A DNA stretch of 64,000 bases from Candidatus Limnocylindrales bacterium (lineage in GTDB: Bacteria > Moduliflexota > Moduliflexia > Moduliflexales > JAUQPW01). The notes under the pieces are model-generated. The model was not told the DNA's origin and made no database searches. It saw only the letters and a program-made list of their open reading frames with translations. Location of the stretch: NCBI GenBank assembly GCA_035559535.1, contig DATMBG010000012.1:1-64000 (forward strand). The letters are read 5' to 3'. Positions within the stretch are counted from its first letter, which is position 1. Each line of letters starts with the position of its first letter. The position numbers were made by a program, and so were the translations under genes. This document shows positions 8,674-45,230 of this stretch, piece after piece.

Positions 8674-9390
8674 TTAAAGAATGGATTCAATAACAACCTC
8701 TCCATCTTTTACGTATGCTTTTTCAGCCCTTTGAATATCTTGAATTTCATTGTCGGGTGAGCGACCAATATATTGAGCTATTCTAAGCTGAGAGGGACTC
8801 AATTGCAAGGCAATAACTACGGCATTTTCAGCTCCTTGAGCGCCGGCATGGGCAACCCCCCGGAGACGCCCCAGTACAATGATATCCCCTCCAGCTATCA
8901 GGTAACTGCCCGGATTTACATCTCCCAAAATAACAATGTTACCGGGATACTCAATGGTTTGACCGGATCGTATCGTTCTACGCAAAAACAGTGTATCCTC
9001 TTCATGTTTTAGGATAGGATCTACCAGATGGGTAAGCGTCCTCGATTTCCTCAGAGGATTCCCACTGTTTCGTTCAATCCGGGCAATCGATCTTTGCGAG
9101 GATTTGATCTCTCCAGCTTTTTCTTCTATAGGCCCTTGCTTATTAATAAATTCCCGAATATATAAGGTATATTTTCTCTCAACGAGGTCTTTGAGTAACT
9201 TGCGTTCTTCGGAAGAAAGTATACGATCTCCAACATAAATATCCACTTCTGCCCCAGAAAAGAAATTATTTGAATCCGCCAGCTTCTTATCCAACTGATT
9301 TAAAACCACATCAAAAAGCGCTCCTGGATCAATCAAAATAGCCAATCCAGACTTCGTGCCTTTAATTTCAACAATCTTCTCAGCTTGCAT
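8674..9390 (-). CDS. minC: Septum site-determining protein
   Basis: VEIKGTKSG N-terminus; RTIRSGQ, GDVNPG, LRGVAHAGA; ATG at 9390 preferred. Confidence 0.93.
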   Translation of the reverse strand: MQAEKIVEIKGTKSGLAILIDPGALFDVVLNQLDKKLADSNNFFSGAEVDIYVGDRILSSEERKLLKDLVERKYTLYIREFINKQGPIEEKAGEIKSSQRSIARIERNSGNPLRKSRTLTHLVDPILKHEEDTLFLRRTIRSGQTIEYPGNIVILGDVNPGSYLIAGGDIIVLGRLRGVAHAGAQGAENAVVIALQLSPSQLRIAQYIGRSPDNEIQDIQRAEKAYVKDGEVVIESIL

Positions 9391-13000: not shown

Positions 13001-13896
13001 TTCTGATCGAAGTGGCTTCTATCCTCGAGGAAATTGAAATAAAGGTAGGGCAACCGATTTTTGAAAAAGGAGATATGGGAAGTTGTATGTATATCATTAC
13101 AGACGGACAGGTACGCGTCCATGATGGAACCCAAACCCTCCGTACCTTAGGGCCCGGGGATATTTTTGGTGAGTTATCAGTGCTGGATCCTGAACCCCGC
13201 TCGGCCTCGGTGACGGCCCTTGAAAACACACGGCTTTTTCGTCTTTATCGGGATGGGCTTTATGAGCTTATGACCGATCATATTGAAGTGGTTCGTGGTA
13301 TTATTCGTGTTTTGTGCCGGTGGTTACGCACGGGGAATCAGAAAATCGTTGAGCATGTCCATTCAAAAGAAATCCTGAAGAAGCATCTCAGTGAAAAAAT
13401 TACCCGAACGATAAAACGAACAGTTGGGGAAAGAAAAAGAAGCGAATTTGTGCTGTTACCCCTTGAAAAAGTTATTATCTTAAAAACGGTTAGTATTTTT
13501 TCTGAGACTTCGGAAGAAATCCTGACCGAGATAGCCTCCCTCCTTGAAGAGGTGGAGTTAGGGGCAGGGGAAACCATTTTTGAAAAGGGAGATATGGGAA
13601 GTTGCATGTATATTGTTATAGATGGTCGGGTACGTATCCACGATGGGGAACAAACCCTGGCTTATGCCGGAGAGCGAGAAATTTTTGGCGAAATGGCCGT
13701 CTTAGATCCCGAACCCCGTTCGGCTTCTGCTACCACTACAGAAGTTACCCGCCTTTTCCGCCTTGATCAGGATGCCCTTTATATATTAATGGCCGATCAT
13801 ATTGAGGTGGTTCATGGAATTATTCGTGTTTTGTGTAAACGGATACGGGCCTCATATCAAACGCAGATTAGTCTGCAAGTTTACCCTTCTGCCTGA
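10054..13896 (+). CDS. Npt/TLC-like (NTT) MFS transporter fused to HEAT repeats and two cyclic-nucleotide-binding domains
   Basis: About 12 TM helices with FW..A..LFNVRQGKRLFGLI; HEAT repeats; two FEKGDMGSCMYI...FGE..VLDPEPRSAS domains. Confidence 0.85.
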   Translation: MSGKLAALWNIYPGEGWPMLLLLIHSFFLGITLVFFYTAANALFLATFDVKILPYAYITSAGVITLGGFLYSKLEKRLPVTRLLPGTLAFLFISVCAFYLGLWVPIRWLIFGLLIWSDMLDMLMGLEFWGLAGRLFNVRQGKRLFGLIGSGDTATRILSGFSIPLLVQVLGTPNLLLISAGGLILCLIVLLIILHRFRERILIPQEEQTETKKVQNQIFHLLKDRYLVLIFLLAVFSVFATYFLNYIFLEQVKADREHADELSRFLGVFYGATDIVSLGFRTLLSGRLLNQHGLKVGLTLLPLMLAVGTVLAVLAGTVFGAVALFFWLVAMNRLTDRVLRKAIFKPAFLILYQPLRASERLSAQVAVEGMVGPVSSGLAGISLLLFNLNGSFSPVRLAYVMLFILAGWVIVSILIQSEYAVALTRALTRRTLEGMSLSLGDASSLAVLKEKLKSSHPNEIIYSLNILEKIEHDALDSFLMDLLEHPAPEVRRDVLLRIERRVEVEFKPVSSVLTLVNKRLKLESSPSVQAAALRALSALGETEVVEQVAPYLENPDLQVRMGAMVGLLRNGGIAGILLAGENLTNWVNSPDPHERELAAQVLGEVGIRSFYHPLLKLLRDEDPQVHRAALIAAGRVQNPKLWPLVLEDLSSPMFYHAAASALVVAGESVLSELALMFNKKNQPREVLIRIARICGRIRGNQVITLLRDKIDFPDEDVRYYILVSLSLCGYRAQEGEVLRVHQKIREEIEDATWTLAALVGIGEEASVFLLKKALTYELEQNQKRILLLLSFIYDSPSILRARDNLLQDSPEKRAYALEIIDLLISQELKPMLFPLLEGLTPTQRLNRLHAFFPQQSLDRGQQLERIISRSDRWIHPWTKTCALYALAYNTSLSNPSILSAVISALSDSNPIVRETAIWTLSRLDPLKYQSYTRSLPGNVGPEIIRAIRQVEAEKSGEKVPLLLIERVILLKTLGIFSETPEQVLIEVASILEEIEIKVGQPIFEKGDMGSCMYIITDGQVRVHDGTQTLRTLGPGDIFGELSVLDPEPRSASVTALENTRLFRLYRDGLYELMTDHIEVVRGIIRVLCRWLRTGNQKIVEHVHSKEILKKHLSEKITRTIKRTVGERKRSEFVLLPLEKVIILKTVSIFSETSEEILTEIASLLEEVELGAGETIFEKGDMGSCMYIVIDGRVRIHDGEQTLAYAGEREIFGEMAVLDPEPRSASATTTEVTRLFRLDQDALYILMADHIEVVHGIIRVLCKRIRASYQTQISLQVYPSA

Positions 13897-33164: not shown

Positions 33165-34331
33165 TTAACATGTGGTCCCGGAAGGATCGCCAAGATAAGC
33201 AGCCCTTTGCCTTTCTTCTCTATCCGGGAGTTCTGCCTTTTTGATTACTTTATTATAAACCATTTCAATGTTACCATCGATACGTTCCCGGTACTGGCCC
33301 CGAGGGTACTTGGACATGGGTTTCTCATACTGAGGGGCCAATTGATCCGCCACGGCTTTCTTCATTTCATCCAGGGTCGCTCCTTCTGCGGCAGCCTTCT
33401 TTACCGCTGCAATGAGATCGGTTAAATAACCTCGAAAGAATTTTAGATGATCTTTGGGAGCTACTTCTCCATGTCCCACGATCATGTGGGTGAAGTCTAA
33501 TTTCTCTACTTCATTTAAAGTCTGTATCCATTCCTCCGGATAGCTGTCGTTGAGAAAGGGCATCCAGTCGATAACACTGTCTCCCGTTATCAGGACTTTT
33601 TCCTGAGGTAAATAAATAAATACATCTCCGGAGGTATGGGCCCGACCCAGATAAAGGAGTCGAATTTCTCGCCCTTTTTCATAAAGGGTGATGGAATTTC
33701 CAAAACTTGCAGTGGGTAAGGTCGGCTTCAGTTCTTTAAGTTCTTTCAGATACGCTTCGGCCTGTTGCAGGTTGGATTCTATGCTGGCTTTTACCTCAGG
33801 GTCGGTAGCCCTACGAAGATCCTCCTTCAGTTTTTCGATTTCTTGGGGGACAATTTCTTGAATTTGTTTTTCTATGTAGGAAATACCTCCCACCCCTGCC
33901 CCGGGCCTGATCATATTATCTCGGGTAATATGAGAAGTCACAATTTCCGTATCTGGAAAAGCCGCCGCATACACTTCATTTCCCTGCCAGTGATCCCAGT
34001 GAAAATGGGTGTTGATCAACTTACGAATCGGTTTGTTGGTGATTCCCTGGATCTCCTTCAGAAGAGATCGAGCCGCCGAGGGCTTAGAATGGGAATCCAC
34101 TACAATGACTCCATCTTCATTCACAATTACGGCCGCGTTACAATTAACTTTATATTGAAAAGCCGCAATCCCTGCGTATACCCCTTCGGCTACCTGCTTT
34201 AATTCAAACAATCCTTTGGTTTCTTCTTCGGCAAACACCCGTGAAGGATCCAAGGTATCGAAGGTTTGAATGGCAGTGGCTGCAATCCCCATCCCTGCTA
34301 AAAATTGTCTTCGGGTCCATGGAGTTTCCAT
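33165..34331 (-). CDS. Tat-exported MBL-fold metallohydrolase (cyclase-like) with a helical insertion
   Basis: TRRQFL twin-arginine signal; THFHWDH, AHTSGD, GD, GHG. Confidence 0.88.
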   Translation of the reverse strand: METPWTRRQFLAGMGIAATAIQTFDTLDPSRVFAEEETKGLFELKQVAEGVYAGIAAFQYKVNCNAAVIVNEDGVIVVDSHSKPSAARSLLKEIQGITNKPIRKLINTHFHWDHWQGNEVYAAAFPDTEIVTSHITRDNMIRPGAGVGGISYIEKQIQEIVPQEIEKLKEDLRRATDPEVKASIESNLQQAEAYLKELKELKPTLPTASFGNSITLYEKGREIRLLYLGRAHTSGDVFIYLPQEKVLITGDSVIDWMPFLNDSYPEEWIQTLNEVEKLDFTHMIVGHGEVAPKDHLKFFRGYLTDLIAAVKKAAAEGATLDEMKKAVADQLAPQYEKPMSKYPRGQYRERIDGNIEMVYNKVIKKAELPDREERQRAAYLGDPSGTTC

Positions 34332-34457
34332 TTTTTGTTTCCCCCCTTTATCTTATAACCAAATTAAGTTTAGAATCGCTGATTTATCCTTAAAGTACCC
34401 CTCCCCTCTGGCCCTCCTTTCAAGGGTACCTTTTTTGGATCTAACCCCTCCAACTCC

Positions 34458-34549
34458 CATAAGGACCAGGACAAGGATAAAAAGCCCCATCAGGGGGCGC
34501 ATGGTTGGTAGCCCCCTCTGGGGCTAACCTTCTTATCCTGGCGTGTAGG
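34458..34549. mobile_element. MITE-like element (same TIR family) with internal palindromes
   Basis: CATAAGGACCAGGACAAG ... CTTATCCTGGCGTGTAGG. Confidence 0.55.
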
Positions 34550-34977
34550 CCTCCGACCCCCCTTCCCTACGAGGGAAGGAGAAAATTGGAACCCAGGTCA
34601 TCCCCGAGTTCCCCTTTCCGGACACGGGAAGGGGGTTAGGGGATCAGGTTAGAAAAAACCTGCGTTCTTCAGGCCCCAACCCTCCCGCTTCACAGGGGAG
34701 GGACTTTGACTGCAACGTTCCTTAAAAAATATCGTTGGATTAGCTATAGAGTTATATTCAAAGATCTCTCTTGTCAAACAAAATTTGTCCGGCAAGGCGG
34801 AATTCAAATGGAAATTTTTTAATAATTTTTCTTGACTTGCTCACTTTTAAGTGTCTAGATGAGAGAACAAAGATAAGCTAGAAATGAGGAATTTGATTCT
34901 GGAAAATTAAGGATCTCCGTGGAAAAATCGATAGAGTAAACCTTAAGTTCTCCCTCCGTGGAGGAAAGTCTCGGACC

Positions 34978-37443
34978 ATGAAGATTTGTTTTAATAAATC
35001 TCAAACTTTTCTGAAAAAATGGCTCCTCCGGCAGAGAGATCCCCCTCTACCTCAGGGGGATAATACGCCGGTAGACCTCTTCCGGTTCAGAAAAAGGGAA
35101 AACCCTGTAGACCTTCCTAAAGAAACAAATCCAGATTCTTCACATTTGGCACAAAAAATGAGAAACTGGAGAGGTAAGAATCCTCTTCCCCTTCCTGGGT
35201 CCAAAGCGATTATCCTGGGTTTCCTGGTAGGAATATCAGGGCTTGTAATTGGTTTATCCCCTATTGGGTTTATCCTTGAGGAAAACCTGGGTCTGAATCT
35301 ACTGTTCCGACTTAGAGGGGCCCGGCCACCTCCGCCTGAAGTCCTGATCGTCAATATAGATAAGGCCTCTGCAACTCATCTCAAATTATCCCATAATCCC
35401 AAGAAATGGCCACGCTCTCTCTACGCTCGCCTTACAGAGAGCCTGGTAAAACAAGGGGCTGCCATTATTGTCTTCGACCTGATTTTTGATGAACCCGGTT
35501 CCCCCAGTGAAGATGCTCTGTTTGCAGATGCAATCCATAAAGCCGGTAATGTCATCCTCTTTAAATACCTGGATGGAGAAATCGTCTCCTTGCCGGATAA
35601 GAAAGGCTTGTCGACTGTAGGTTTGAATATTGAGAGATGGGTCCTGCCGATTCCTCCTCTTGCCCAATCTGCTCTGGCCATAGCTCCTTTTCCTTTGCCC
35701 AAGGTGCCTGCCCGGCTGAATCAGTATTGGATGTTCAAGGCGGGTGCAGGGGATATGCCTACTTTGCCGGTTGTAGCGTTCCAAACCTTCGCGTTACAGG
35801 TCTACGACGAATTTCTCCAGTTGTTGAAAAAGGTGAATCCGGCTCAAGCCGAGAAACTTCCCGGGGATAAACGGGTTCTTACCACTTCCGCTGATATTGA
35901 AAACCTCATTTTGACGCTGCGATCCATATTTCAAAACAATCCACGGGTCGCAAGGGAAATGCTCAAAGAACTCCAGATCTCCAGGGTCTTGGTGGAGGAT
36001 GGGAGAAAGAATCGAATTCTGCAATCCCTGATCCGGATGTATCAGCACGCGGATACCCAATACTTGAACTTTTACGGCCCTTCCGGTACGATGCCGACGG
36101 TTTCTTACCCTGAGGTTCTACAGGTTGAGGAAAAATCTGTTGCCAGTTCTCATCTCGTAGATTTAAAAGGTAAAGTGGTCTTTATTGGATCCTCTGGAAA
36201 CCTGCGGTCAGAGCTGAAAGATGATTTTCATACCGTTTTCTCCCAACCCAATGGATTGGATCTGACAGGCGTTGAAATTGCGGCAACCGCCTTCGCAAAC
36301 CTGTTGGAAGATGAATCTATTACGCCCCCTTCCCTTCTTGAGCAATCCGTCATTATTCTTCTATGGGGAATAACCTTGGGAATTCTTTGCCGTTTACTTC
36401 CGATTGTTCTCGGAGCCATGGGTGTCTTAGGACTCAGCATCCTGTATCTTATGGCTACTTATTATGAATTTAAAACAACGGAGAGCTGGTATCCAGTGGT
36501 CATACCTCTCCTTTTCCAGGTTCCCCTGACCTTCTTTGGGGCTGTTCTGTGGAAGTATCGGGATGCTCACCGGGAACGTCAAAACATTCGGGAGGCCCTG
36601 GGTTATTACCTGCCCAATGAAATGGTGGATCAGTTGGCAAAAAACGTAGCCCATATCAAAACAGGCGGTCAACTGGTTTACGGAGTTTGTTTAGCAACCG
36701 ATGCAGAACAATACACCCCTCTGGCGGAAAGGGTGAGTCCTCAACAATTGAGCCAGATTATGAATGAATATTATGGGGCTGTGTTTGAGCCGGTCCTGCA
36801 AAATAGCGGAGTTATATCCGATGTAATAGGAGATTCCATGCTTGCCTTGTGGGTGGCAACGCAACCGGACCGTGCTCTCAAGAATCAAGCCTGCCTGGCA
36901 GCCCTTGGAATCGCCGGCGCTGTGGATCGGTTCAATCAATCTTCCCATAATTTACAACTTCCTACCCGTATTGGCCTTCATTTTGGTCAGATGTCGTTGG
37001 GGAATATAGGTGCCATCCGTCACTATGAGTACCGTGCTGTCGGAGATGTGGTCAATACGGCCAACAGGCTTCAGGATCTGAATAAGCAAATGGGTACCCG
37101 CATATTGATTTCCAGTGAAGTATCCGATCAATTGGAGGGTTTCTTGATCCGGGAGCTGGGTAAATTTCTGCTACCCGGAAAGTCGAACCCCGTGGGAATT
37201 TGTGAATTAATGGGTCGTACAGAGACGTGTAGAGAGCAACAACATCAACTTTGTGCGATTTTCACCATGGCCCTGGAGGCCTTCCGCAGGCAATCTTGGG
37301 AAGAGGCTATTGAAAAGTTGAATGAGATCCTCAAAATCCATAAAAACGACGGACCTTCACTCTTTTACTTAAAGTTGTGTAAGCAATACCAACAGAATCC
37401 CCCCAAGGAACCTTGGGACGGCACGGTTCGTATGAAAAAATAA
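34978..37443 (+). CDS. CHASE2-domain class III nucleotide cyclase (start may be 35158)
   Basis: N-terminal TM; CHASE2 motifs (IVNID, WPRS, VFDLIF, GVEIAA); 3 TM; TD...GD...GDVVNTANRL catalytic motifs; C-terminal PP..WDG. Confidence 0.92.
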   Translation: MKICFNKSQTFLKKWLLRQRDPPLPQGDNTPVDLFRFRKRENPVDLPKETNPDSSHLAQKMRNWRGKNPLPLPGSKAIILGFLVGISGLVIGLSPIGFILEENLGLNLLFRLRGARPPPPEVLIVNIDKASATHLKLSHNPKKWPRSLYARLTESLVKQGAAIIVFDLIFDEPGSPSEDALFADAIHKAGNVILFKYLDGEIVSLPDKKGLSTVGLNIERWVLPIPPLAQSALAIAPFPLPKVPARLNQYWMFKAGAGDMPTLPVVAFQTFALQVYDEFLQLLKKVNPAQAEKLPGDKRVLTTSADIENLILTLRSIFQNNPRVAREMLKELQISRVLVEDGRKNRILQSLIRMYQHADTQYLNFYGPSGTMPTVSYPEVLQVEEKSVASSHLVDLKGKVVFIGSSGNLRSELKDDFHTVFSQPNGLDLTGVEIAATAFANLLEDESITPPSLLEQSVIILLWGITLGILCRLLPIVLGAMGVLGLSILYLMATYYEFKTTESWYPVVIPLLFQVPLTFFGAVLWKYRDAHRERQNIREALGYYLPNEMVDQLAKNVAHIKTGGQLVYGVCLATDAEQYTPLAERVSPQQLSQIMNEYYGAVFEPVLQNSGVISDVIGDSMLALWVATQPDRALKNQACLAALGIAGAVDRFNQSSHNLQLPTRIGLHFGQMSLGNIGAIRHYEYRAVGDVVNTANRLQDLNKQMGTRILISSEVSDQLEGFLIRELGKFLLPGKSNPVGICELMGRTETCREQQHQLCAIFTMALEAFRRQSWEEAIEKLNEILKIHKNDGPSLFYLKLCKQYQQNPPKEPWDGTVRMKK

Positions 37444-37653
37444 CCTGTTTCCCGTTTTAATCCTTTGGTAAGTACTCCCCATCCGCTCCCTCCTCCGTTT
37501 CACAGGGGAGGGAACTTTGATCACAACCTTCTCTCCCCTGCGGAGCGGGGGAAGGTCAGTAGGTTAACCTTCCCCGGTTGATGTGAAGGGGACTTTCTCA
37601 AATACCCGGGCCTCTATTTGAGCTCCTCAACGGGAGCGAGAAAGGCTGTGGCT

Positions 37654-40600
37654 ATGAGCACAAAAATAACCAGGTATCCAAGGTTCCAATTCGACTTACT
37701 TTTTTTAAGCCTATCTCTGTTCATAGGTTTATTAGCAATGTTTCTCTTCCCCAATTCGGCGGTTGCAGAATTCTGCGAGGCACCTGTAGCCAACGTGGTT
37801 TCCGTGGAGGGGAGCGTAGAAGCCCTCAGGGCAGGGGAGACCGAATGGGAGCCGGTTTTATTTGGGGATAGTTTCTGTCCTGGAGATAGGATCCGGGTCC
37901 AGGCAAACAGTCGGGCTGCCATCCTCTTGAGTAATGAGACCCTTCTCCGTTTAGATGAGAATACCGTCGTGACCTTCCTGGAACCGGAACCCAAAGAAAC
38001 CTCCCTGTTAGATTTATTCATCGGAGTTATCCACTTTATCAGCCGGGTTCCCCGAGGCTTAAGAGTCACCACTCCTTATATTAATGCTGCTATTGAGGGA
38101 ACTGAGTTCTTGATGGTTGTCGAAGAAGACCGGGCCCGGATCACCGTATTTGAAGGACGGGTCGTAGCGGCGAATGAGTTTGGAAGTCTGACCCTCACCG
38201 AGGGCCAATCCGCCGAAGCCCTGGCAGGTCAGGCTCCTGTTTTACGCATTGCCGTCCGTCCAAGGGATGCCGTACAGTGGGCTCTGTATTATCCCCCTAT
38301 TCTGGATTATCGTCCCGGTGATTTTGCAGGAGGGGCCGATTGGCAGGTCAGGGTTCGTCAATCCATTCAATTCTACAACGAGCGTAACCTGGCTCAGGCC
38401 TTTGCGGTTTTGGAAGGAGCCCCGGAAGATATCTCGGATCCTCGGTTTTACCTCTATCGGGCGGCATTACTCCTTTCGGTGGGACGGGTGGAGAAAGCCC
38501 AAAGGGATATTGAGAAGGCGTTAAGTTTGGATCCCCGGAATAGTTCTGCCTTTGCCCTTCAGTCTATGATAGCCGTGGTTCAAAATGATAAGGATCGGGC
38601 ATTAAGTCTGGCCCAAAAGGCCGTAGAGGTAGATCCCCAATCGGCTTCTGCGCGACTGGCACTTTCTTATGCCTTACAGGCCCGGTTTGAGGTACAGGGA
38701 GCTTTAGCAAGTCTGCGGGAGGCAGTGAAGCGGAATCCCGAAAACAGTTTAGTGCGGGCTCGGTTATCAGAGATGTGGTTATCGGTGGGGAATCTGGGTA
38801 AAGCTGTGGAGACGGCAAAGAAAGCGGTAAAGTTGAATCCGAAATTGGCCCGTACTCAAACGGTTTTGGGATTTGCTTACCTGGATCAAATCAAGATCCG
38901 GGAAGCCAGGAAGGCTTTTGAGGAAGCCATCCAATTGGATCAGGCCGATCCTCTACCCCACTTAGGTTTGGGGTTGACGATCCTACGGGACGGGGATCTG
39001 AAAAAGGGTCGGAGAGAACTCGAGATTGCGGCGAGTCTGGACCCGAACACCTCATTGATTCGCAGCTATTTGGGTAAAGCCTATTATGAAGAGAAGCGGG
39101 ATAAGCCGGCCGGGAAAGAGCTGGCAACTGCCAAAGAACTGGACCCTCAAGATCCAACACCTTGGTTTTATGATGCGATTCGAAAACAGACCATGAATCG
39201 ACCTGTGGAGGCGTTGCGAGATTTGGAAAGATCCCTGGAGTTGAACAACAATCGGGCCGTCTATCGATCCCGACTCTTATTGGAAGAAGATCTGGCCGCC
39301 CGGAGCGCTGGTCTCTCTCGAATTTACCACGATCTCGGATTCGAGCAATTAGCCTTGGTAGAAGGTTGGAGATCGGTGAATACCGACCCCGCTAACTACT
39401 CGGCCCATCGACTCCTGGCCGATTCCTATGCGGCTTTACCCCGCCATGAGATTGCCAGAGTGAGTGAACTTCTCCAATCTCAACTCCTTCAACCCCTTAA
39501 CATTACGCCGATTCAGCCCGAGCTGGCAGAAACTAACCTCTTCATTTTGAGTGGAGCAGGTCCAACCGAGCTTTCATTTAATGAGTTCAATCCGCTTTTT
39601 AACCGGAACCGGTTTGCGTTGCAAATCCATGGAATTGCCGGTGAGAATAATACCTTCGGCAACGAGATAATCCATTCAGCAGTACAGGGGAGACTCTCGT
39701 ATAGTATCGGCCAATTCCACTACGAGACAGAGGGATTTCGAGAAAATAACGACCAGAATCAGGACATCTACAATGTATTTACCCAACTACGCCTCTCTCC
39801 CGAAGCGAGTATCCAGGCTGAACTCAGATATAGAGAGACTGAAAAAGGGGATCTCGGACTTAGATTCGATCCCAATAACTTTAATCCTACGCTTAGACAA
39901 AAAGTACAGCCGGAATCTATTCGGCTGGGTTTCCATCAAGCTTTTACCTCCCGTTCTGATCTCCTTGCCTACATTATTTATCAGAATAGGACTGAAGATG
40001 TCGATTTTACGTTGGATAGCACTTCTACCTTTGAGGAAACTCTAAAAAGTAACGATTATATGGCTGAAATCCAGCATCTGTTTCGCTTCGAACGATTTAA
40101 CCTGATCAGTGGTATAGGATATTTCAACTCGGATTTGAGAACCGTCGTAAATTTCCTTCCCTTTTTTTCAGATACCCAGGAAAACCTCCTTCATCACACC
40201 AACCCTTATGTATATTCACAGATCGATTATCCGAAAAACATGATCTGGACTCTTGGGGGAAGTGGGGACTTTTTTGAAGGTGTGCCGGTGGATCGCAACC
40301 AATTCAACCCCAAACTGGGGTTAACCTGGAATCCACTTCCTACGACCACCCTTCGCGCGGCCGTATTTAGGGTTTTGAAAAAATCCCTGATTCTGAACCA
40401 AACCCTTGAACCGACCCAAGTAGCCGGTTTCAATCAGTTTTTTGACGATGGTCCTGGCACAGAGTCCTGGCGCTACGGTATCGCCGTTGATCAAAAGCTC
40501 CCTGCGCAGATCTATGCCGGTGCGGAGTTTTCCAAACGAGACTTGAACGTCCCCTTTGAAAAGATAATGGGGCCAATCCGGCAAATCCAGGAGGCTAATT

Positions 40601-41052
40601 GGGAAGAGCATCTGGGTCGTTCCTATCTCTACTGGACACCCCAGGTTTGGCTGGCAGTCAGTACAGAATATCAATATGAACGTTTTGAAAGGCCACTTGA
40701 CGCGACAGGCCCGGAATTAATAACCGAGCTCAGGACCCATCGGCTCCCCTTAGGGGTCAGCTTTTTCCATCCCTCAGGATTTAAGGTGCGGCTAAAAGCA
40801 ACCTATGTGAATCAAAAGGGCAATTTCGTAAGTTTTGGAGCCGGTCCGATTCCGATTGTTACACCCGATGCCGATCAGTTTTGGGTCATTGATACCTCTA
40901 TCGGTTACCGTCTGCCCAGGCGGTGGGGTCTCCTCACTCTTGAGGCTAAAAATCTGTTTAATGAAGCGTTTAAGTTTCAGGATACAGATCCTGAAAATCC
41001 ACAAATAGAGCCGAAACGTCTGGTCTTTGTCAGGCTTACTCTGGCATTCTAG
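37654..41052 (+). CDS. FecR-like + TPR + outer-membrane beta-barrel receptor (NsrA-like architecture)
   Basis: Signal peptide; GD.I..., V.TP...AAIEGTEF, V.EG.V FecR motifs; TPRs; beta-barrel ending LTLAF. Confidence 0.88.
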   Translation: MSTKITRYPRFQFDLLFLSLSLFIGLLAMFLFPNSAVAEFCEAPVANVVSVEGSVEALRAGETEWEPVLFGDSFCPGDRIRVQANSRAAILLSNETLLRLDENTVVTFLEPEPKETSLLDLFIGVIHFISRVPRGLRVTTPYINAAIEGTEFLMVVEEDRARITVFEGRVVAANEFGSLTLTEGQSAEALAGQAPVLRIAVRPRDAVQWALYYPPILDYRPGDFAGGADWQVRVRQSIQFYNERNLAQAFAVLEGAPEDISDPRFYLYRAALLLSVGRVEKAQRDIEKALSLDPRNSSAFALQSMIAVVQNDKDRALSLAQKAVEVDPQSASARLALSYALQARFEVQGALASLREAVKRNPENSLVRARLSEMWLSVGNLGKAVETAKKAVKLNPKLARTQTVLGFAYLDQIKIREARKAFEEAIQLDQADPLPHLGLGLTILRDGDLKKGRRELEIAASLDPNTSLIRSYLGKAYYEEKRDKPAGKELATAKELDPQDPTPWFYDAIRKQTMNRPVEALRDLERSLELNNNRAVYRSRLLLEEDLAARSAGLSRIYHDLGFEQLALVEGWRSVNTDPANYSAHRLLADSYAALPRHEIARVSELLQSQLLQPLNITPIQPELAETNLFILSGAGPTELSFNEFNPLFNRNRFALQIHGIAGENNTFGNEIIHSAVQGRLSYSIGQFHYETEGFRENNDQNQDIYNVFTQLRLSPEASIQAELRYRETEKGDLGLRFDPNNFNPTLRQKVQPESIRLGFHQAFTSRSDLLAYIIYQNRTEDVDFTLDSTSTFEETLKSNDYMAEIQHLFRFERFNLISGIGYFNSDLRTVVNFLPFFSDTQENLLHHTNPYVYSQIDYPKNMIWTLGGSGDFFEGVPVDRNQFNPKLGLTWNPLPTTTLRAAVFRVLKKSLILNQTLEPTQVAGFNQFFDDGPGTESWRYGIAVDQKLPAQIYAGAEFSKRDLNVPFEKIMGPIRQIQEANWEEHLGRSYLYWTPQVWLAVSTEYQYERFERPLDATGPELITELRTHRLPLGVSFFHPSGFKVRLKATYVNQKGNFVSFGAGPIPIVTPDADQFWVIDTSIGYRLPRRWGLLTLEAKNLFNEAFKFQDTDPENPQIEPKRLVFVRLTLAF

Positions 41053-41168
41053 CTTTTCCCAACGAAAGGAGGTGATTACATCGGATCCAACACCAGTGGG
41101 TTTAAAATGGAGTGAAAGAATTATTGTAAACCCCTAAGAGGGTTTACATCCTTAACAGGAGGTAAACA

Positions 41169-41381
41169 ATGGCAAAATTCATGAAAATTATGATAGAAAT
41201 AGATACTGGAAAAGTTACTGTAACAGATGAAAATGATGTTCCTGCTAAAACAGGAGACAGTCCTGATAAAAGAGGAGGGATCACCCGGGAGGAAACCTGG
41301 AGGGTGGTTCATACTCAGTCCAGTCCGGGATGCCAATGGGTTCTTACCGGTGCAGGTTGGCAATTTGTTTGCAGCCCCTAG
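41169..41381 (+). CDS. 70-aa small protein with C-terminal SPGC-x12-C motif
   Basis: Strong SD AGGAGG 6 nt before ATG; co-directional, 116 nt after the receptor gene. Confidence 0.75.
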   Translation: MAKFMKIMIEIDTGKVTVTDENDVPAKTGDSPDKRGGITREETWRVVHTQSSPGCQWVLTGAGWQFVCSP

Positions 41382-41401
41382 CTTCGAGGGAAGAATACAC
41401 T

Positions 41402-41499
41402 CCTCCAGAGAGCCGGACTCATGTCCCCTCGATTGTTTTGCTTAAGGAAATTTTTTGTTTCATTTAAGGACGAGAGTGGCCTGCAGTTCGGCTCTGAGG
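41402..41499 (+). other. Long imperfect stem-loop directly after the peptide gene
   Basis: CCTC..AGAGCCGGACT / AGTTCGGCTCTGAGG, inner CTCG/CGAG and CTTAA/TTAAG. Confidence 0.5.
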
Positions 41500-41717
41500 A
41501 TTTACAAGGAAAGGGGCGAGAAGGTTCAGGTCCTTTAATAACTTGAACTCGCATCAACGGCCCTTAAGGGATAGGGAGTGTTTCTTCTTTCCGCTACTAA
41601 GTTGATATGGATTTCATTGAGGTTGAAGTCTGGGAACAAGAAGAAAGATTCTCTATTCTTACACGGAATAAGAAATTTTCCGTTGACTCCAAACCCCCCT
41701 GATAGGATCTTAAAGAT

Positions 41718-41902
41718 AAAGCTGAGACATTTCCTCTTTGTTAACCTGAACCCTGCAGGTTATGGGGAACTGAAAAGAGCCTTTAAATCCGACCGGATCG
41801 TTCGTGGGGTTGAAAAACGATGCCCCTGGATGAAACCAGAAAACCTTTAAGGATCAAAAGGGTTGAAGGGTATCTGCGGGATGAGCTTCGGAATGTGGCT
41901 TA
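41718..41902 (+). ncRNA. Candidate 6S RNA
   Basis: About 185-nt rod: closing AAGC-TGAG-ACATTTCC/GGAATGT-GGCTT and CCTGCAGGT/ATCTGCGGG, central bubble of about 19 nt per side, apical ATCCG/TGGAT and ATCGTT/AACGAT; TTGACT upstream. Confidence 0.5.
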
Positions 41903-41951
41903 CATAAACGGGAGGAAAGCAGGGATCTGGAGAAGAAAATCCAAGTAAAAT

Positions 41952-44210
41952 ATGGGAAAATATCAGGATACGATTTTGCAGACGGGAGAAACGTGTAGTC
42001 GAATTGCTTATGCCGAGACTTCAGGGATTTTAGTGGATGGAGAGCAGTATTATACCGCCCTGGATCGGGTTTTTGATAGTGCCGAATCTTATATCCTTCT
42101 TTCGATGTGGCAGTTTGATACGAGAACGAGGTTACTTCGGGCTAAAGAAGAAACCCCCACATTCCTGGAGCGACTGGTCCAGCTCCTGGATGAGCGTAAA
42201 AATCTGGAAGTTTATATCCTTGCCTGGGATTATTCGGTTTTATTTCAATTTGAAAGGGAATGGTTTTCTCAATTAAAGGTAGAACTTGCGGGGCATCCGC
42301 GTCTTCATTTCCAGTTCGATGATGTACATCCCATCTGGGGTTCCCACCATCATAAAATGACCGTAGTAGACGGGCGTATAGCCTTTGTGGGCGGACTGGA
42401 TGTGTGTGAAGATCGATGGGATACCCGGGCTCATCAATATCTAGACCCCCGCCGGAGGAATTACGATGGAACGCTTTACAGACCCTTCCATGACGCGGTA
42501 GCTTTTGTTACCGGTCGTGCAGCCCGAGCCGTTGAACGTGAGTTCTGCTATCACTGGAAATGGGCTACAGGTCAAAAACTCTGGCTTACACGTCCTGGGA
42601 ATGGAAAACCTCTACCCGATTTCCAAACGGTTAGCCAGATCCCAGGAACTCAGGTAGGAATTGCCCGAACCTTACCTCCCATGCTTTTCCCTCCCCAAAC
42701 GGCTCGACGAGATATTCAACATCTTTACCAAAAGGCTATCCTTTCTGCAAAACGCTCTATTTACATCGAGAATCAATACTTTACCTCTCGAGCCGTATTG
42801 AAAGCCCTCCAGGAGCGGCTTGCTCAGGTAAATAGCCCTGAGGATCCGTTGGAAATTGTGGTAGTATTACCCAAACTTCCTTCCGGTCTGGTGGAAATCC
42901 TGGCGATTCTCAATAACCAGCTATCCTGTTTGAGAAACCTGGCAGAAGCCTGCCGGAAAGCAGGGGTACGGTATGGTTTCTTCTATCCGATTACTGTAAG
43001 CCCGGAGGGTTCAGAACAGTTTATTTATACCCACGCTAAAATATTGGCCGTGGATGATACTTTACTGACCGTAGGATCTGCCAATACGAGCAATCGAAGT
43101 ATGGAGTACGATACCGAATGTAATCTGGTCTGGGAAGCCCACGAAAACTTTGGGGATGAAAAAAATATCCGTCGGTTCATCAGGCAAACCCGGGACGAAC
43201 TCCTGGCCGAACACTGCGGGGTTTCCGTGGAGGTGTGGCGTGAAAAACTTCATCAGCACCAGGGACGACTCCTAGATACCCTGGAGAGTTTGAAAAACCA
43301 GGGAGTAGAAAAAAAGCTGATTCCCTTCCATGAAGAGGACATCCGGGGTTCCCATAACGCCCCTCTGGAGATTCTCCCTGAAAACTTTGCCGTAGATCCT
43401 TCAGATCCTTTCTGGATTAACCCGGAAATGATGGAAGATTTAAAGGAAACCTGGGAGATCCTTCAAGGGAGCTCGGCAACCTCTCCTGACTCCGAAAAGG
43501 TAGAAAAGCCTGAGGAATCCCCTGAAGCAGAATTTAGCCGAATCAGTATTTTACGAATCCTGGGTTTAATAGGGGGTTTAATGACCCTGGTTCTCCTGGT
43601 TCGCTCCTTCTTGCCGGAAGAATTGACCATCCATAACCTTCTTGTATTCCTAAACAATTTACGTCAACAAGAAAATGCGCCCTGGTTACTGGCAGGTCTC
43701 TTCCTCTTGGCCACCCAGGCCTTTGTCAGTGTGACGGTGATGGTTATCGTTACCGCTTTGATTTTAGGGGTTGAAAAAGGTCTTGTCGTAAATGCCGGAG
43801 GAATCATCGTATCCGCTTTACTGGGATATTTCTTGGGAAGATTGGTGGGACCTAAAAGTTTAAAACAGCTATTACCTGGATGGGTTTCTCGACATATTGA
43901 TCGGGTTTCTAAACTCGGCCCCTGGTCGGTAGCTTTCTTCCGAACCGTACCCCTTCTGCCTTATCAAATATTTAACTTGATAGCCGGCGCCGCAGGATTA
44001 CGTCTGAGGTCTTATATGCTGGGAACCCTGATGGGGGACCTTCCCGCTACCCTTTTAATCACCTGGTCCGTAGGAAATCTCCAAACTGCAAATTGGCAGG
44101 AGGGTATCCCCTGGCAGACCCTGTTAGTGGCTATAGGAGTTACAGGAATTTTAACCCTCTCAGGTTATGTTCTATCTCGAAGATTGAAACGATATGCTTC
44201 TCTGGATTAA
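41952..44210 (+). CDS. Phospholipase D with C-terminal VTT/DedA (SNARE-associated) membrane domain
   Basis: Two HKD motifs (HHKMTVVD, HAKILAVD..GSAN); TM domain with FRTVPLLP. Confidence 0.9.
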   Translation: MGKYQDTILQTGETCSRIAYAETSGILVDGEQYYTALDRVFDSAESYILLSMWQFDTRTRLLRAKEETPTFLERLVQLLDERKNLEVYILAWDYSVLFQFEREWFSQLKVELAGHPRLHFQFDDVHPIWGSHHHKMTVVDGRIAFVGGLDVCEDRWDTRAHQYLDPRRRNYDGTLYRPFHDAVAFVTGRAARAVEREFCYHWKWATGQKLWLTRPGNGKPLPDFQTVSQIPGTQVGIARTLPPMLFPPQTARRDIQHLYQKAILSAKRSIYIENQYFTSRAVLKALQERLAQVNSPEDPLEIVVVLPKLPSGLVEILAILNNQLSCLRNLAEACRKAGVRYGFFYPITVSPEGSEQFIYTHAKILAVDDTLLTVGSANTSNRSMEYDTECNLVWEAHENFGDEKNIRRFIRQTRDELLAEHCGVSVEVWREKLHQHQGRLLDTLESLKNQGVEKKLIPFHEEDIRGSHNAPLEILPENFAVDPSDPFWINPEMMEDLKETWEILQGSSATSPDSEKVEKPEESPEAEFSRISILRILGLIGGLMTLVLLVRSFLPEELTIHNLLVFLNNLRQQENAPWLLAGLFLLATQAFVSVTVMVIVTALILGVEKGLVVNAGGIIVSALLGYFLGRLVGPKSLKQLLPGWVSRHIDRVSKLGPWSVAFFRTVPLLPYQIFNLIAGAAGLRLRSYMLGTLMGDLPATLLITWSVGNLQTANWQEGIPWQTLLVAIGVTGILTLSGYVLSRRLKRYASLD

Positions 44211-44271
44211 TTTTCTATCCTTTGTCCTCCACGTTTTACTTCACTTTTAAGCGGCCCTTACCCTCGGCTCC

Positions 44272-44501
44272 CATACGCACCAGGATAAGAAGGTTAGCCC
44301 CGGCGGGGTGACCTGTTCACAGGCCGCTCCTCAATCCCTCTTGCCTCCTTCCCCCGTGTACGGGGAGAATTTCCCCGCATGGGGGGGGAAGGGGGGATAA
44401 TAGAGGAAAGGGAGGCTTCCTTGGGAGCTTGAAAAAAATTCTGAATGACTGAAACCCTGTTCGCCCCTGACAAGGTTTTTCAGCTTAACCTGGCACGTAT
44501 G
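44272..44501. mobile_element. MITE-like element (same TIR family), with further fragments out to about 44645
   Basis: CATACGCACCAGGATAAG ... CTTAACCTGGCACGTATG; internal sequence shared with 54564-54700. Confidence 0.7.
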
Positions 44502-44891
44502 CCCCCGGCTCCTCTCCCACGCCAGGATTAACCTTCTTATCCCGACGCCTATAGGGAACACCTCCTAGTCCCCCCTCGAGGGGGCATGGGGGGCGTTTAG
44601 GTCGAAAATAAGGCTTTCCCCTTTCTTAGTTCCATGGGTACGGGATTGGGCCTGCTTTATACTCCATTTCACTACCGGCCTGATATAAGTCCCCGGTATG
44701 GAGCAGAAGCTGGGAACGAGAAAAATCTGGTCAAATAATTGCATAGCTTGTTGTCCAGATGTATTTTTATAATTAAGAGTCTGTTAAAGAATTTTTAGGA
44801 GGTACCTTCCCGGAGAGACTCTTAAAGCCTATAGCCGGAGAGTTCTCATCTGTTTTCGCATCAACTCGAAGAACATCGGAGATAGAACCTT

Positions 44892-45230
44892 ATGGAAGAA
44901 ATCCGAACGGTAACCCAATTGTCTGAGGTGGAAAAGTCGATTCTCATCTTACTGTATAAAAATCCATCCGGTCTTACCCTTCAACAACTCCAACAAGAGG
45001 TGGGGTGCACACGAGAGGATCTTTACAACCTGGGGAATGATACCTTTCATCTGGAAACCCGGGGAGTGGATCAATATATCAAGCTGATTTATCTTTTTGA
45101 AGATACTTCCCAAAGGCAGGAGAACAGGTGGAAATACCGACTGACCGATCCCGGAATAAAATTTATGAAGAGTGTTCGGGCCTTTGCTTCCGGGCCTTCC
45201 AGACTGCCACTTAAAAAACAGAAGTTGTAA
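44892..45230 (+). CDS. Small winged-helix-like protein
   Basis: LS.VEKSILILL...GLTLQQLQQEVG ... YRLTDPGIKF pattern. Confidence 0.6.
   Translation: MEEIRTVTQLSEVEKSILILLYKNPSGLTLQQLQQEVGCTREDLYNLGNDTFHLETRGVDQYIKLIYLFEDTSQRQENRWKYRLTDPGIKFMKSVRAFASGPSRLPLKKQKL

Follow-up and report, generated by a model that had tools for sequence, protein, structure and literature searches.

Closest described systems and the module in the window

The closest described counterpart of the locus studied here, a three-gene module in a 64,000-nucleotide (nt) stretch of DNA from Candidatus Limnocylindrales bacterium (contig DATMBG010000012.1, positions 1 to 64,000; the whole stretch is called the window below), is trans-envelope cyclic-AMP signalling by NsrA-CyaK (and CyaD1/D2) in Sinorhizobium meliloti. 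Both NsrA and CyaK are required there for perception of a protein signal that is present in extracts of plants, yeast and bacteria and was identified as free ribosomal protein uL2, and they are the only case found of an outer-membrane FecR-TPR-barrel protein shown to feed a CHASE2 cyclase (PMC7529298, cited from its available part). The module in the window joins a third gene to such a pair. Judging by the genome comparisons reported below, this small gene is conserved and, as a third component, specifically linked to NsrA-like receptors; it is the new part.

Other described systems share some of these elements. At the chromosomal cyaD1 locus of S. meliloti, smc02178 stands back to back with the FecR-domain gene smc02177; its periplasmic product is described as "without structural or functional clues", and the gene is activated by Clr-cAMP (cyclic adenosine monophosphate) and needed for secondary infection to be controlled, not for signal perception (PMC5498481 and PMC4222275, from the accessible portions). 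In Campylobacterota, too, a CHASE2 cyclase clusters with components of the FecR, outer-membrane and TPR kinds, which are seen as one pathway; the cluster consists of four genes including a phosphodiesterase, and the available part of the article mentions no small Cys-containing protein (PMC9239204), whereas the window carries FecR, TPR and barrel as one polypeptide. The Burkholderia 'BiofilmReg' operon encodes a response regulator, a LysM-FecR protein, a CHASE2 kinase and a DUF4136 lipoprotein, and thereby shares a FecR-domain protein, a CHASE2 sensor and a small uncharacterised protein gene in last position (PMC5192318, available part). Its output is a histidine kinase, however, and DUF4136 is matched by none of the 25 aligned small proteins considered here. 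Finally, in FecA-FecR-FecI a FecA-like 22-strand barrel and a FecR domain likewise relay a signal across the envelope. There the differences are that the receptor in the window is plug-less, that its FecR domain is fused to the barrel instead of forming an inner-membrane anti-sigma factor, and that the output is a cyclase, not an extracytoplasmic function (ECF) sigma factor.

In the window, the cyclase, the receptor and the small gene follow one another in one direction (Table 1). A sequence-only reading of this DNA had proposed exactly these three co-directional genes, and open reading frames (ORFs) and Pfam agree with it; the bounds that it gave, 34978 to 41499, are right for the start and the genes, but the end overshoots the stop codon at 41381.

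Table 1. Features of the three-gene module, in window coordinates
Feature	Position	Strand	Basis and remarks
CHASE2-domain class III nucleotide cyclase, 821 amino acids	34978..37443	+	Pfam CHASE2 and Guanylate_cyc
NsrA-like FecR-TPR-barrel receptor ORF, 1144 amino acids, TTG start	37618..41052	+	Pfam, AlphaFold2 (AF2), BLASTP; likely true start 37654
Shine-Dalgarno sequence AGGAGG of the small gene	41157..41162	+	Sequence; 6 nt 5' of the ATG; same in the same-genus genome G001
Small leaderless protein, 70 amino acids	41169..41381	+	Two beta-hairpins with a variable linker between; Cys55 and Cys68 flank the last hairpin

The first gene has both the sensor and the catalytic domain of a CHASE2 class III cyclase of the CyaK/CyaD/CyaB type, with Pfam matches to CHASE2 (PF05226, 2e-32, residues 101-468) and Guanylate_cyc (PF00211, 4.4e-14, residues 574-737). 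Among solved structures, those nearest to the catalytic domain belong to adenylate cyclases, including the P. aeruginosa CHASE2 enzyme CyaB (3r5g, 1.1e-12). When the module was compared with the Pycsar anti-phage system, this catalytic domain alone matched PycC (2.7e-17); no effector model (PycTM or PycTIR) matched the receptor, the small protein or the phospholipase D (PLD) gene further downstream, and the assignment is not supported.

The second gene encodes, in order, a signal or anchor helix, a FecR domain, a TPR array, a conserved linker and an outer-membrane barrel of about 22 strands. Pfam places FecR (PF04773, 6.2e-14) at residues 90-182, equivalent to residues 66-160 of NsrA, followed by many TPR families (top TPR_2 at 1.5e-22) and TonB_dep_Rec_b-barrel (PF00593, 1.3e-8) at residues 738-916. 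No Plug domain is found among the 19 Pfam matches of the receptor, which sets it apart from a FecA-type TonB-dependent transducer. The AF2 model, made from a 17-sequence alignment, has a mean predicted local distance difference test score (pLDDT) of 61.9; it shows a helix (23-43), a beta domain (58-211), a helical part that begins at 233 and ends near 625 and, over residues 684-1143, a barrel with about 21-22 strands; the stretch 505-690 is modelled at low confidence. A Foldseek search pairs the model with the 22-strand barrels of the TonB-dependent transporters FptA, FpvA and FecA at about 1e-10. The TTG-started ORF exceeds the 1132-residue database copy by 12 codons, and the receptor therefore probably starts at Met13 (Table 1).

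The precedent named in the sequence-only reading, NsrA/CyaK, is well chosen. The window's receptor is collinear with S. meliloti NsrA (BLASTP E 4e-25, 25% identity over 582 residues, plus a weak barrel segment), shares its order of FecR, TPR and C-terminal barrel, and is likewise encoded beside a CHASE2 class III cyclase. S. meliloti NsrA has 1200 residues, its barrel part is weakly similar to that in the window, and cyaK follows directly on pSymB, an order that differs from the cyclase-receptor-small gene order found here. The receptor family is large, with more than 5000 members in the protein collection searched.

In S. meliloti no match to the small-protein profile lies within 7 kb of nsrA, and there is none in the roughly 4 kb downstream of the receptor at four further NsrA-like loci from alphaproteobacteria, in which the cyclase comes after the receptor. 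No Sinorhizobium-like NsrA occurs in a sample of 401 genomes of the order. On pSymB, the gene divergent from nsrA-cyaK (L108:6292-6837, - strand) has a PycTM domain, that of a Pycsar effector (3.1e-11); its product is a possible cyclic-nucleotide-gated membrane effector beside the cyclase operon.

A small gene family and its place behind the receptor

Codon comparisons show that the 70-residue ORF is a real gene under purifying selection. Seven codons differ between the window and G001, six of them by synonymous and one by a non-synonymous change; of the five other frames, four yield 0-2 synonymous changes, and the fifth, an antisense frame with the same third positions, yields 6:2 but holds no ORF. 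On a contig of soil metagenome run X11, 8 synonymous changes stand against 1 non-synonymous among the differences listed in the small ORF (at least nine in total). Insertions and deletions between the window and G001 lie in the flanking non-coding DNA and none falls inside the ORF, and a metagenome protein 93% identical to the small protein keeps both Cys and all Trp residues. The strong Shine-Dalgarno sequence and the lack of a signal peptide noted from the sequence alone are confirmed, the latter by a hydrophobicity heuristic that finds no signal-like segment. An in-frame TAA at 41163-41165 means that the ORF has no N-terminal extension and that no export signal was missed.

As far as the searches reach, the small protein belongs to an unnamed, widespread family. 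No Pfam or NCBIfam family is common to the 25 aligned members at E<=0.1, and a sequence profile search of the PDB returned nothing (best E 1.2). Structure comparison of the small-protein model gave no significant match (Foldseek best E 0.96; VIA best Z 2.3), a model of 70 residues being no proof of a new fold, and the ESM Atlas gave unnamed clusters only, with scores of 0.84-0.86 that lie beneath the meaningful level. A word-indexed protein search found one relative with the single protein and 16 with the alignment A3, all of them unnamed or labelled "hypothetical protein". That the sequence-only reading knew of no description of such a third component agrees with the curated families and with the searchable literature: the full texts searched on NsrA, CHASE2, FecR and smc02178 hold no description of it, the original 2018 NsrA paper and Tian 2012 lying outside that coverage.

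An exhaustive phmmer search of 1.84 billion representatives (E<=1e-3) found eight proteins. Six of them are small, with 73-121 residues, and share an N-terminal hairpin (a hydrophobic strand, an x-G turn and V-T-D-E-N-G) and a C-terminal one (S/N-P-x-C-x-W ... G-x-W-x-x-x-C); a signal peptide precedes this same two-hairpin domain in two of the six, P0124 and P0125. The N-terminal hairpin also has similarity elsewhere: 12 separate stretches of P0122, a protein of 2544 residues, match residues 8-39 of the small protein (E 3e-6), and by this likeness the hairpin may be related to a repeat unit of large surface proteins.

The place of the gene was examined from both sides. From the side of the receptor, 79 loci around receptor homologues were taken from species genomes and their 9128 ORFs of at least 30 residues were scanned with a context-blind profile, built only from the window's protein and seven database relatives. 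Twelve ORFs matched at E<0.01, and 11 of these start between -50 and +1500 nt from the receptor stop, a zone with 1099 of all 9128 ORFs in it (binomial P 8e-10). The remaining match sits behind a second receptor-like gene in L090. After four rounds of iteration, 28 of 30 matches were in this zone, in 26 of the 71 loci with at least 400 nt downstream. The gap between receptor stop and small gene in the iterated matches has a median of 106 nt (range -22 to 405), and three of these matches are convergent, not co-directional, with the receptor.

From the side of the small protein, the 25-sequence profile A3 was run against 401 genomes from about 270 families. It matched three of them (G000, G001 and G094), every time directly behind a receptor. 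The barrel was found in four of the 401 genomes and the 397 barrel-less genomes gave no A3 match; in the fourth barrel genome, G400, a convergent metallo-beta-lactamase (MBL)-fold gene follows the receptor in place of the small gene. These counts are lower bounds, since A3 missed the L059 member in that member's own genome, G402. With a profile of the Nitrospirota-type subfamily, a receptor end lies about 90 nt upstream in all five metagenome loci matched, and the cyclase precedes the receptor in all four that are long enough. Enrichment of the small gene beside such receptors was among the checks that the sequence-only reading had named, and both searches found it.

A cyclase homologue adjoins the receptor in 59 of the 79 loci. 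The linkage follows the receptor and not the cyclase, because the small gene also occurs without a cyclase within 6 kb (L099) and with the cyclase placed elsewhere (L045). Loci that carry the small gene are labelled Thermodesulfobacteriota, Nitrospirota, Pseudomonadota (gamma-, beta- and alphaproteobacteria), Myxococcota and Eisenbacteria, besides the window's own lineage. A tblastn search of plasmids with an alphaproteobacterial member and a metagenome scan with the profile A4 gave no match.

Some loci without a profile match have other small Cys-rich ORFs at the same place, and ORFs near the receptor stop show a loose C-terminal Cys-hairpin pattern in 44 of 512 cases, compared with 102 of 5523 elsewhere. 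Four Nitrosomonas-type loci (L084:6768-7031, L086:9364-9633, L091:9395-9658 and L098:9410-9673) have a distinct Cys-containing ORF of 87-89 residues, 10-17 nt past the receptor stop, that the profile does not recognise and that may either correspond to the small gene in very divergent form or replace it. In three Nitrospirota loci (L035:9782-10114, L038:9753-10085 and L040:9718-10050) an ORF of 110 residues with 9-10 Cys lies 3' of the small gene; its representative from L038 has no Pfam family.

Fold, export signals and the role of the small protein

The AF2 model of the small protein, from the 25-sequence alignment (pLDDT 79.1; predicted template modelling score, pTM, 0.51), is a single five-strand fold across all 70 residues, with strands at 5-9, 16-20, 45-48, 55-60 and 63-68. 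In alignment A3, G14, P53, C55 and C68 are at least 90% conserved, and conservation is equal in the N-terminal hairpin and in the C-terminal, Cys-flanked one. The C-terminus with two Cys residues quoted in the sequence-only reading is indeed present (Cys55 and Cys68). Its division of the chain into a leader and a disulfide-closed core is not supported: the presumed leader is equally conserved and is kept behind signal peptides, and AF2 predicts one fold for the whole.

This bears on the idea that the gene encodes a precursor akin to ribosomally synthesised and post-translationally modified peptides (RiPPs), whose hairpin core would be cut from its leader and exported as a pheromone. The small size and the C-terminal Cys-flanked hairpin would suit such a precursor, yet the family does not have the variable leader and conserved core of a RiPP or peptide pheromone, nor a neighbouring maturation enzyme or exporter, and lipoproteins with tandem domains exist. 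For the neighbours, nine representatives of the 25 most widespread ORF clusters in the 79 loci were scanned with Pfam; they comprise a Crp-like regulator, a sigma-54 response regulator, an ABC ATPase and aminotransferases, with four that have no family. There was no peptidase among the nine, and neither a conserved maturation gene nor a dedicated exporter near the small gene. We regard a RiPP-like precursor as very improbable.

Export signals divide the family. By the hydrophobicity heuristic, the N-terminus is hydrophobic (Sec or lipoprotein signal) in 13 of the 29 members taken from the loci, and a lipobox was called in 7 of the 13, mostly from gamma- and betaproteobacteria. The window's protein has no signal-like segment, its best 12-residue Kyte-Doolittle mean being 0.92 against 2.4-3.6 in signal-bearing relatives. 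L090 and L082b have tandem forms with two full domains, and some tandem members are lipoproteins. Leaderless and signal-bearing partners are intermixed on the receptor-barrel tree, which is a quick tree only (five changes each; starred branches force at least two), and the two forms seem, from this pattern, to replace each other.

Because of the export signals, the tandem forms, the equal conservation of the two hairpins and the lack of a neighbouring peptidase, the small protein looks more like a folded envelope domain that partners the receptor than like a secreted signal peptide cut from a leader. We tentatively favour, at somewhat less than an even chance, that it is a subunit dedicated to the NsrA-like receptor as its partner in the envelope, in the role of co-receptor or regulator; the mechanism is one we infer from anatomy and distribution. 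The small all-beta protein would work in the cell envelope with Cys55 and Cys68 forming a disulfide. It may bind the receptor at the periplasmic FecR/TPR part or at the plug-less barrel and so set how the CHASE2 domain receives the receptor's signal; the inner-membrane cyclase that bears this domain would then make cAMP or cyclic guanosine monophosphate (cGMP). Small partner lipoproteins of barrels are known, with RcsF in outer-membrane proteins (OMPs) and LptE in LptD, and the logic would be akin to that of the RcsF-OMP or LptE-LptD pairs. CHASE2 sensors are widespread and their ligands mostly unknown, and a small family that travels with the receptor is a concrete third player; a family model could also give a context-based name to hundreds of "hypothetical proteins".

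Several observations weigh against such a partner. No profile-positive small ORF is found in 45 of the 71 eligible receptor loci, and none is recognisable at L029, G400 or S. meliloti nsrA-cyaK, so that the partner is either not obligatory for this type of receptor or has diverged past recognition. L029, from a record of Candidatus Brocadia sp., has the receptor nearest to that of the window (57% barrel identity, sister on the quick tree) and no small gene recognised after position 9360; going by the profile, the small partner there is lost or was never present. The Fisher P of 4e-7 for co-occurrence in genomes overstates independence, because the four genomes come from two genera (G000 and G001; G094 and G400). 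The export-signal calls come from a crude hydrophobicity heuristic, not from SignalP, and 16 of the 29 members have no export signal, including the window's protein, Nitrospirota and many Thermodesulfobacteriota forms. A purely periplasmic role of the leaderless form in the window would therefore need an unknown export route.

That the window's protein lacks an export signal and yet retains its Cys pair is a puzzle, and it leads to a second explanation, in which the protein is a self-made ligand. The whole leaderless protein would leave the cell by lysis or another, unknown route, its disulfide would close outside, and the receptor of neighbouring cells would sense it and raise their cyclic nucleotide monophosphate (cNMP) level, as a kin or danger signal. 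Leaders are missing from the window form and from most of its close relatives, and even leaderless forms keep the Cys pair almost without exception, which would be odd for a cytoplasmic protein. Since NsrA/CyaK responds to free uL2 (PMC7529298, available part), NsrA-like receptors can sense released cytoplasmic proteins. Lipoprotein and tandem-domain relatives cannot diffuse freely, however, the intermixing of leaderless and signal-bearing forms on the quick tree suggests one shared role, and no exporter or protease is conserved nearby among the nine cluster representatives of the 79 loci. We consider a self-made ligand unlikely. The sequence-only reading had proposed a peptide ligand of the receptor, and only part of this holds: a cut, diffusible peptide does not agree with the signal-bearing members and the tandem lipoproteins, and a whole-protein ligand is possible. 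In a narrower form, which we rate as less likely again, the leaderless, cytoplasmic 70-residue protein would be freed by lysis of kin cells, Cys55 and Cys68 would be oxidised outside the cell, and the receptor of surviving cells would activate the cyclase, with a tethered lipoprotein co-receptor in other lineages. If true, cyclic-nucleotide signalling would here be fed by a danger or kin-lysis signal that is dedicated and genetically linked.

A third explanation places the small gene at the output of the pathway and not at its input, as a target of a cNMP-Crp branch that encodes an envelope effector or a feedback element; smc02178 is such a target in S. meliloti. The recurrent neighbours in the 79 loci are the cyclase (59), a Crp-type cNMP-binding regulator (24), a sigma-54 response regulator (14) and an ABC ATPase (6), and the presence of the Crp-type regulator beside the cyclase, as with Clr at the cyaD1 locus (PMC4222275, PMC5498481, accessible portions), speaks for an output role. 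So does the precedent of smc02178, which is Clr-cAMP-activated and encodes a periplasmic protein beside smc02177 (PMC5498481, PMC4222275, accessible portions). The SMc02178 protein resembles the small protein, by description only, in belonging to no known family, in periplasmic export and in having its gene next to one for a FecR-domain protein at a CHASE2-cyclase locus (PMC5498481, accessible portion); it differs in that smc02178 is transcribed divergently from a shared Clr box (supplement table S3, as available). Against an output role, the gaps after the receptor stop are only 23-60 nt in several loci, which suggests that the small gene is co-transcribed with the receptor, and no Crp-type or Crp-size regulator gene adjoins the module in the window. 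A pattern scan found no Clr-like box upstream of the small gene; the Clr-box-like pattern TGTT-N8-AACA has 30 matches where 22.4 are expected, and the single perfect match lies inside the small ORF. An output role is accordingly doubtful to us, more so than either form of the ligand.

The structure of the receptor invites a fourth explanation, that the small protein is an assembly factor or a lumen plug, whose sole task would be to fold, insert or close the plug-less 22-strand barrel, outside signalling. A Plug domain is missing from this barrel, which resembles those of TonB-dependent transporters; the segment before it is modelled with low confidence, and several relatives of the small protein look like outer-membrane lipoproteins. 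Many receptor loci have no recognisable copy, though, and the Sec route to the barrel would be closed to leaderless forms. We hold this to be improbable, and place it below an output role and above a RiPP-like precursor.

Surroundings of the module

A perfect 8-bp inverted repeat at 41127-41148, just 5' of the small gene's ribosome-binding site, is replaced by a run of C in G001 and is thus not conserved. RNA fold z-scores are -0.55 for 41053-41200 and -2.37 for 41370-41560. The promoter and terminator scan gave counts at shuffle level, with nothing clear near the small gene, and an Rfam scan of 34000-45000 gave two sub-threshold chance matches and nothing more.

Downstream, a gap of 570 nt of non-coding DNA (41382-41951) separates the small gene from a PLD-type gene; it contains blocks about 95% identical to G001 and has no Rfam match. 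A deletion of about 92 nt in this 3' gap of G001 takes out the start of a 90-residue ORF at 41578-41850, which is therefore not conserved. The PLD-type gene itself (41952-44210, + strand, 752 residues) encodes two PLD-type phosphodiesterase motifs fused to a C-terminal VTT/DedA membrane domain; it is kept downstream in G001 and has weak DrmC-like PADLOC matches.

MBL-fold genes occur near the module both in the window (33165-34331) and in G400; they are mutually unrelated and fall below every NCBIfam cut-off. Farther upstream, 21 kb 5' of the cyclase, two cNMP-binding domains are encoded at 13036-13797 (+ strand) within an open frame of 1286 residues, and by its domain matches this frame is a candidate for the nearest cNMP receptor in the window.

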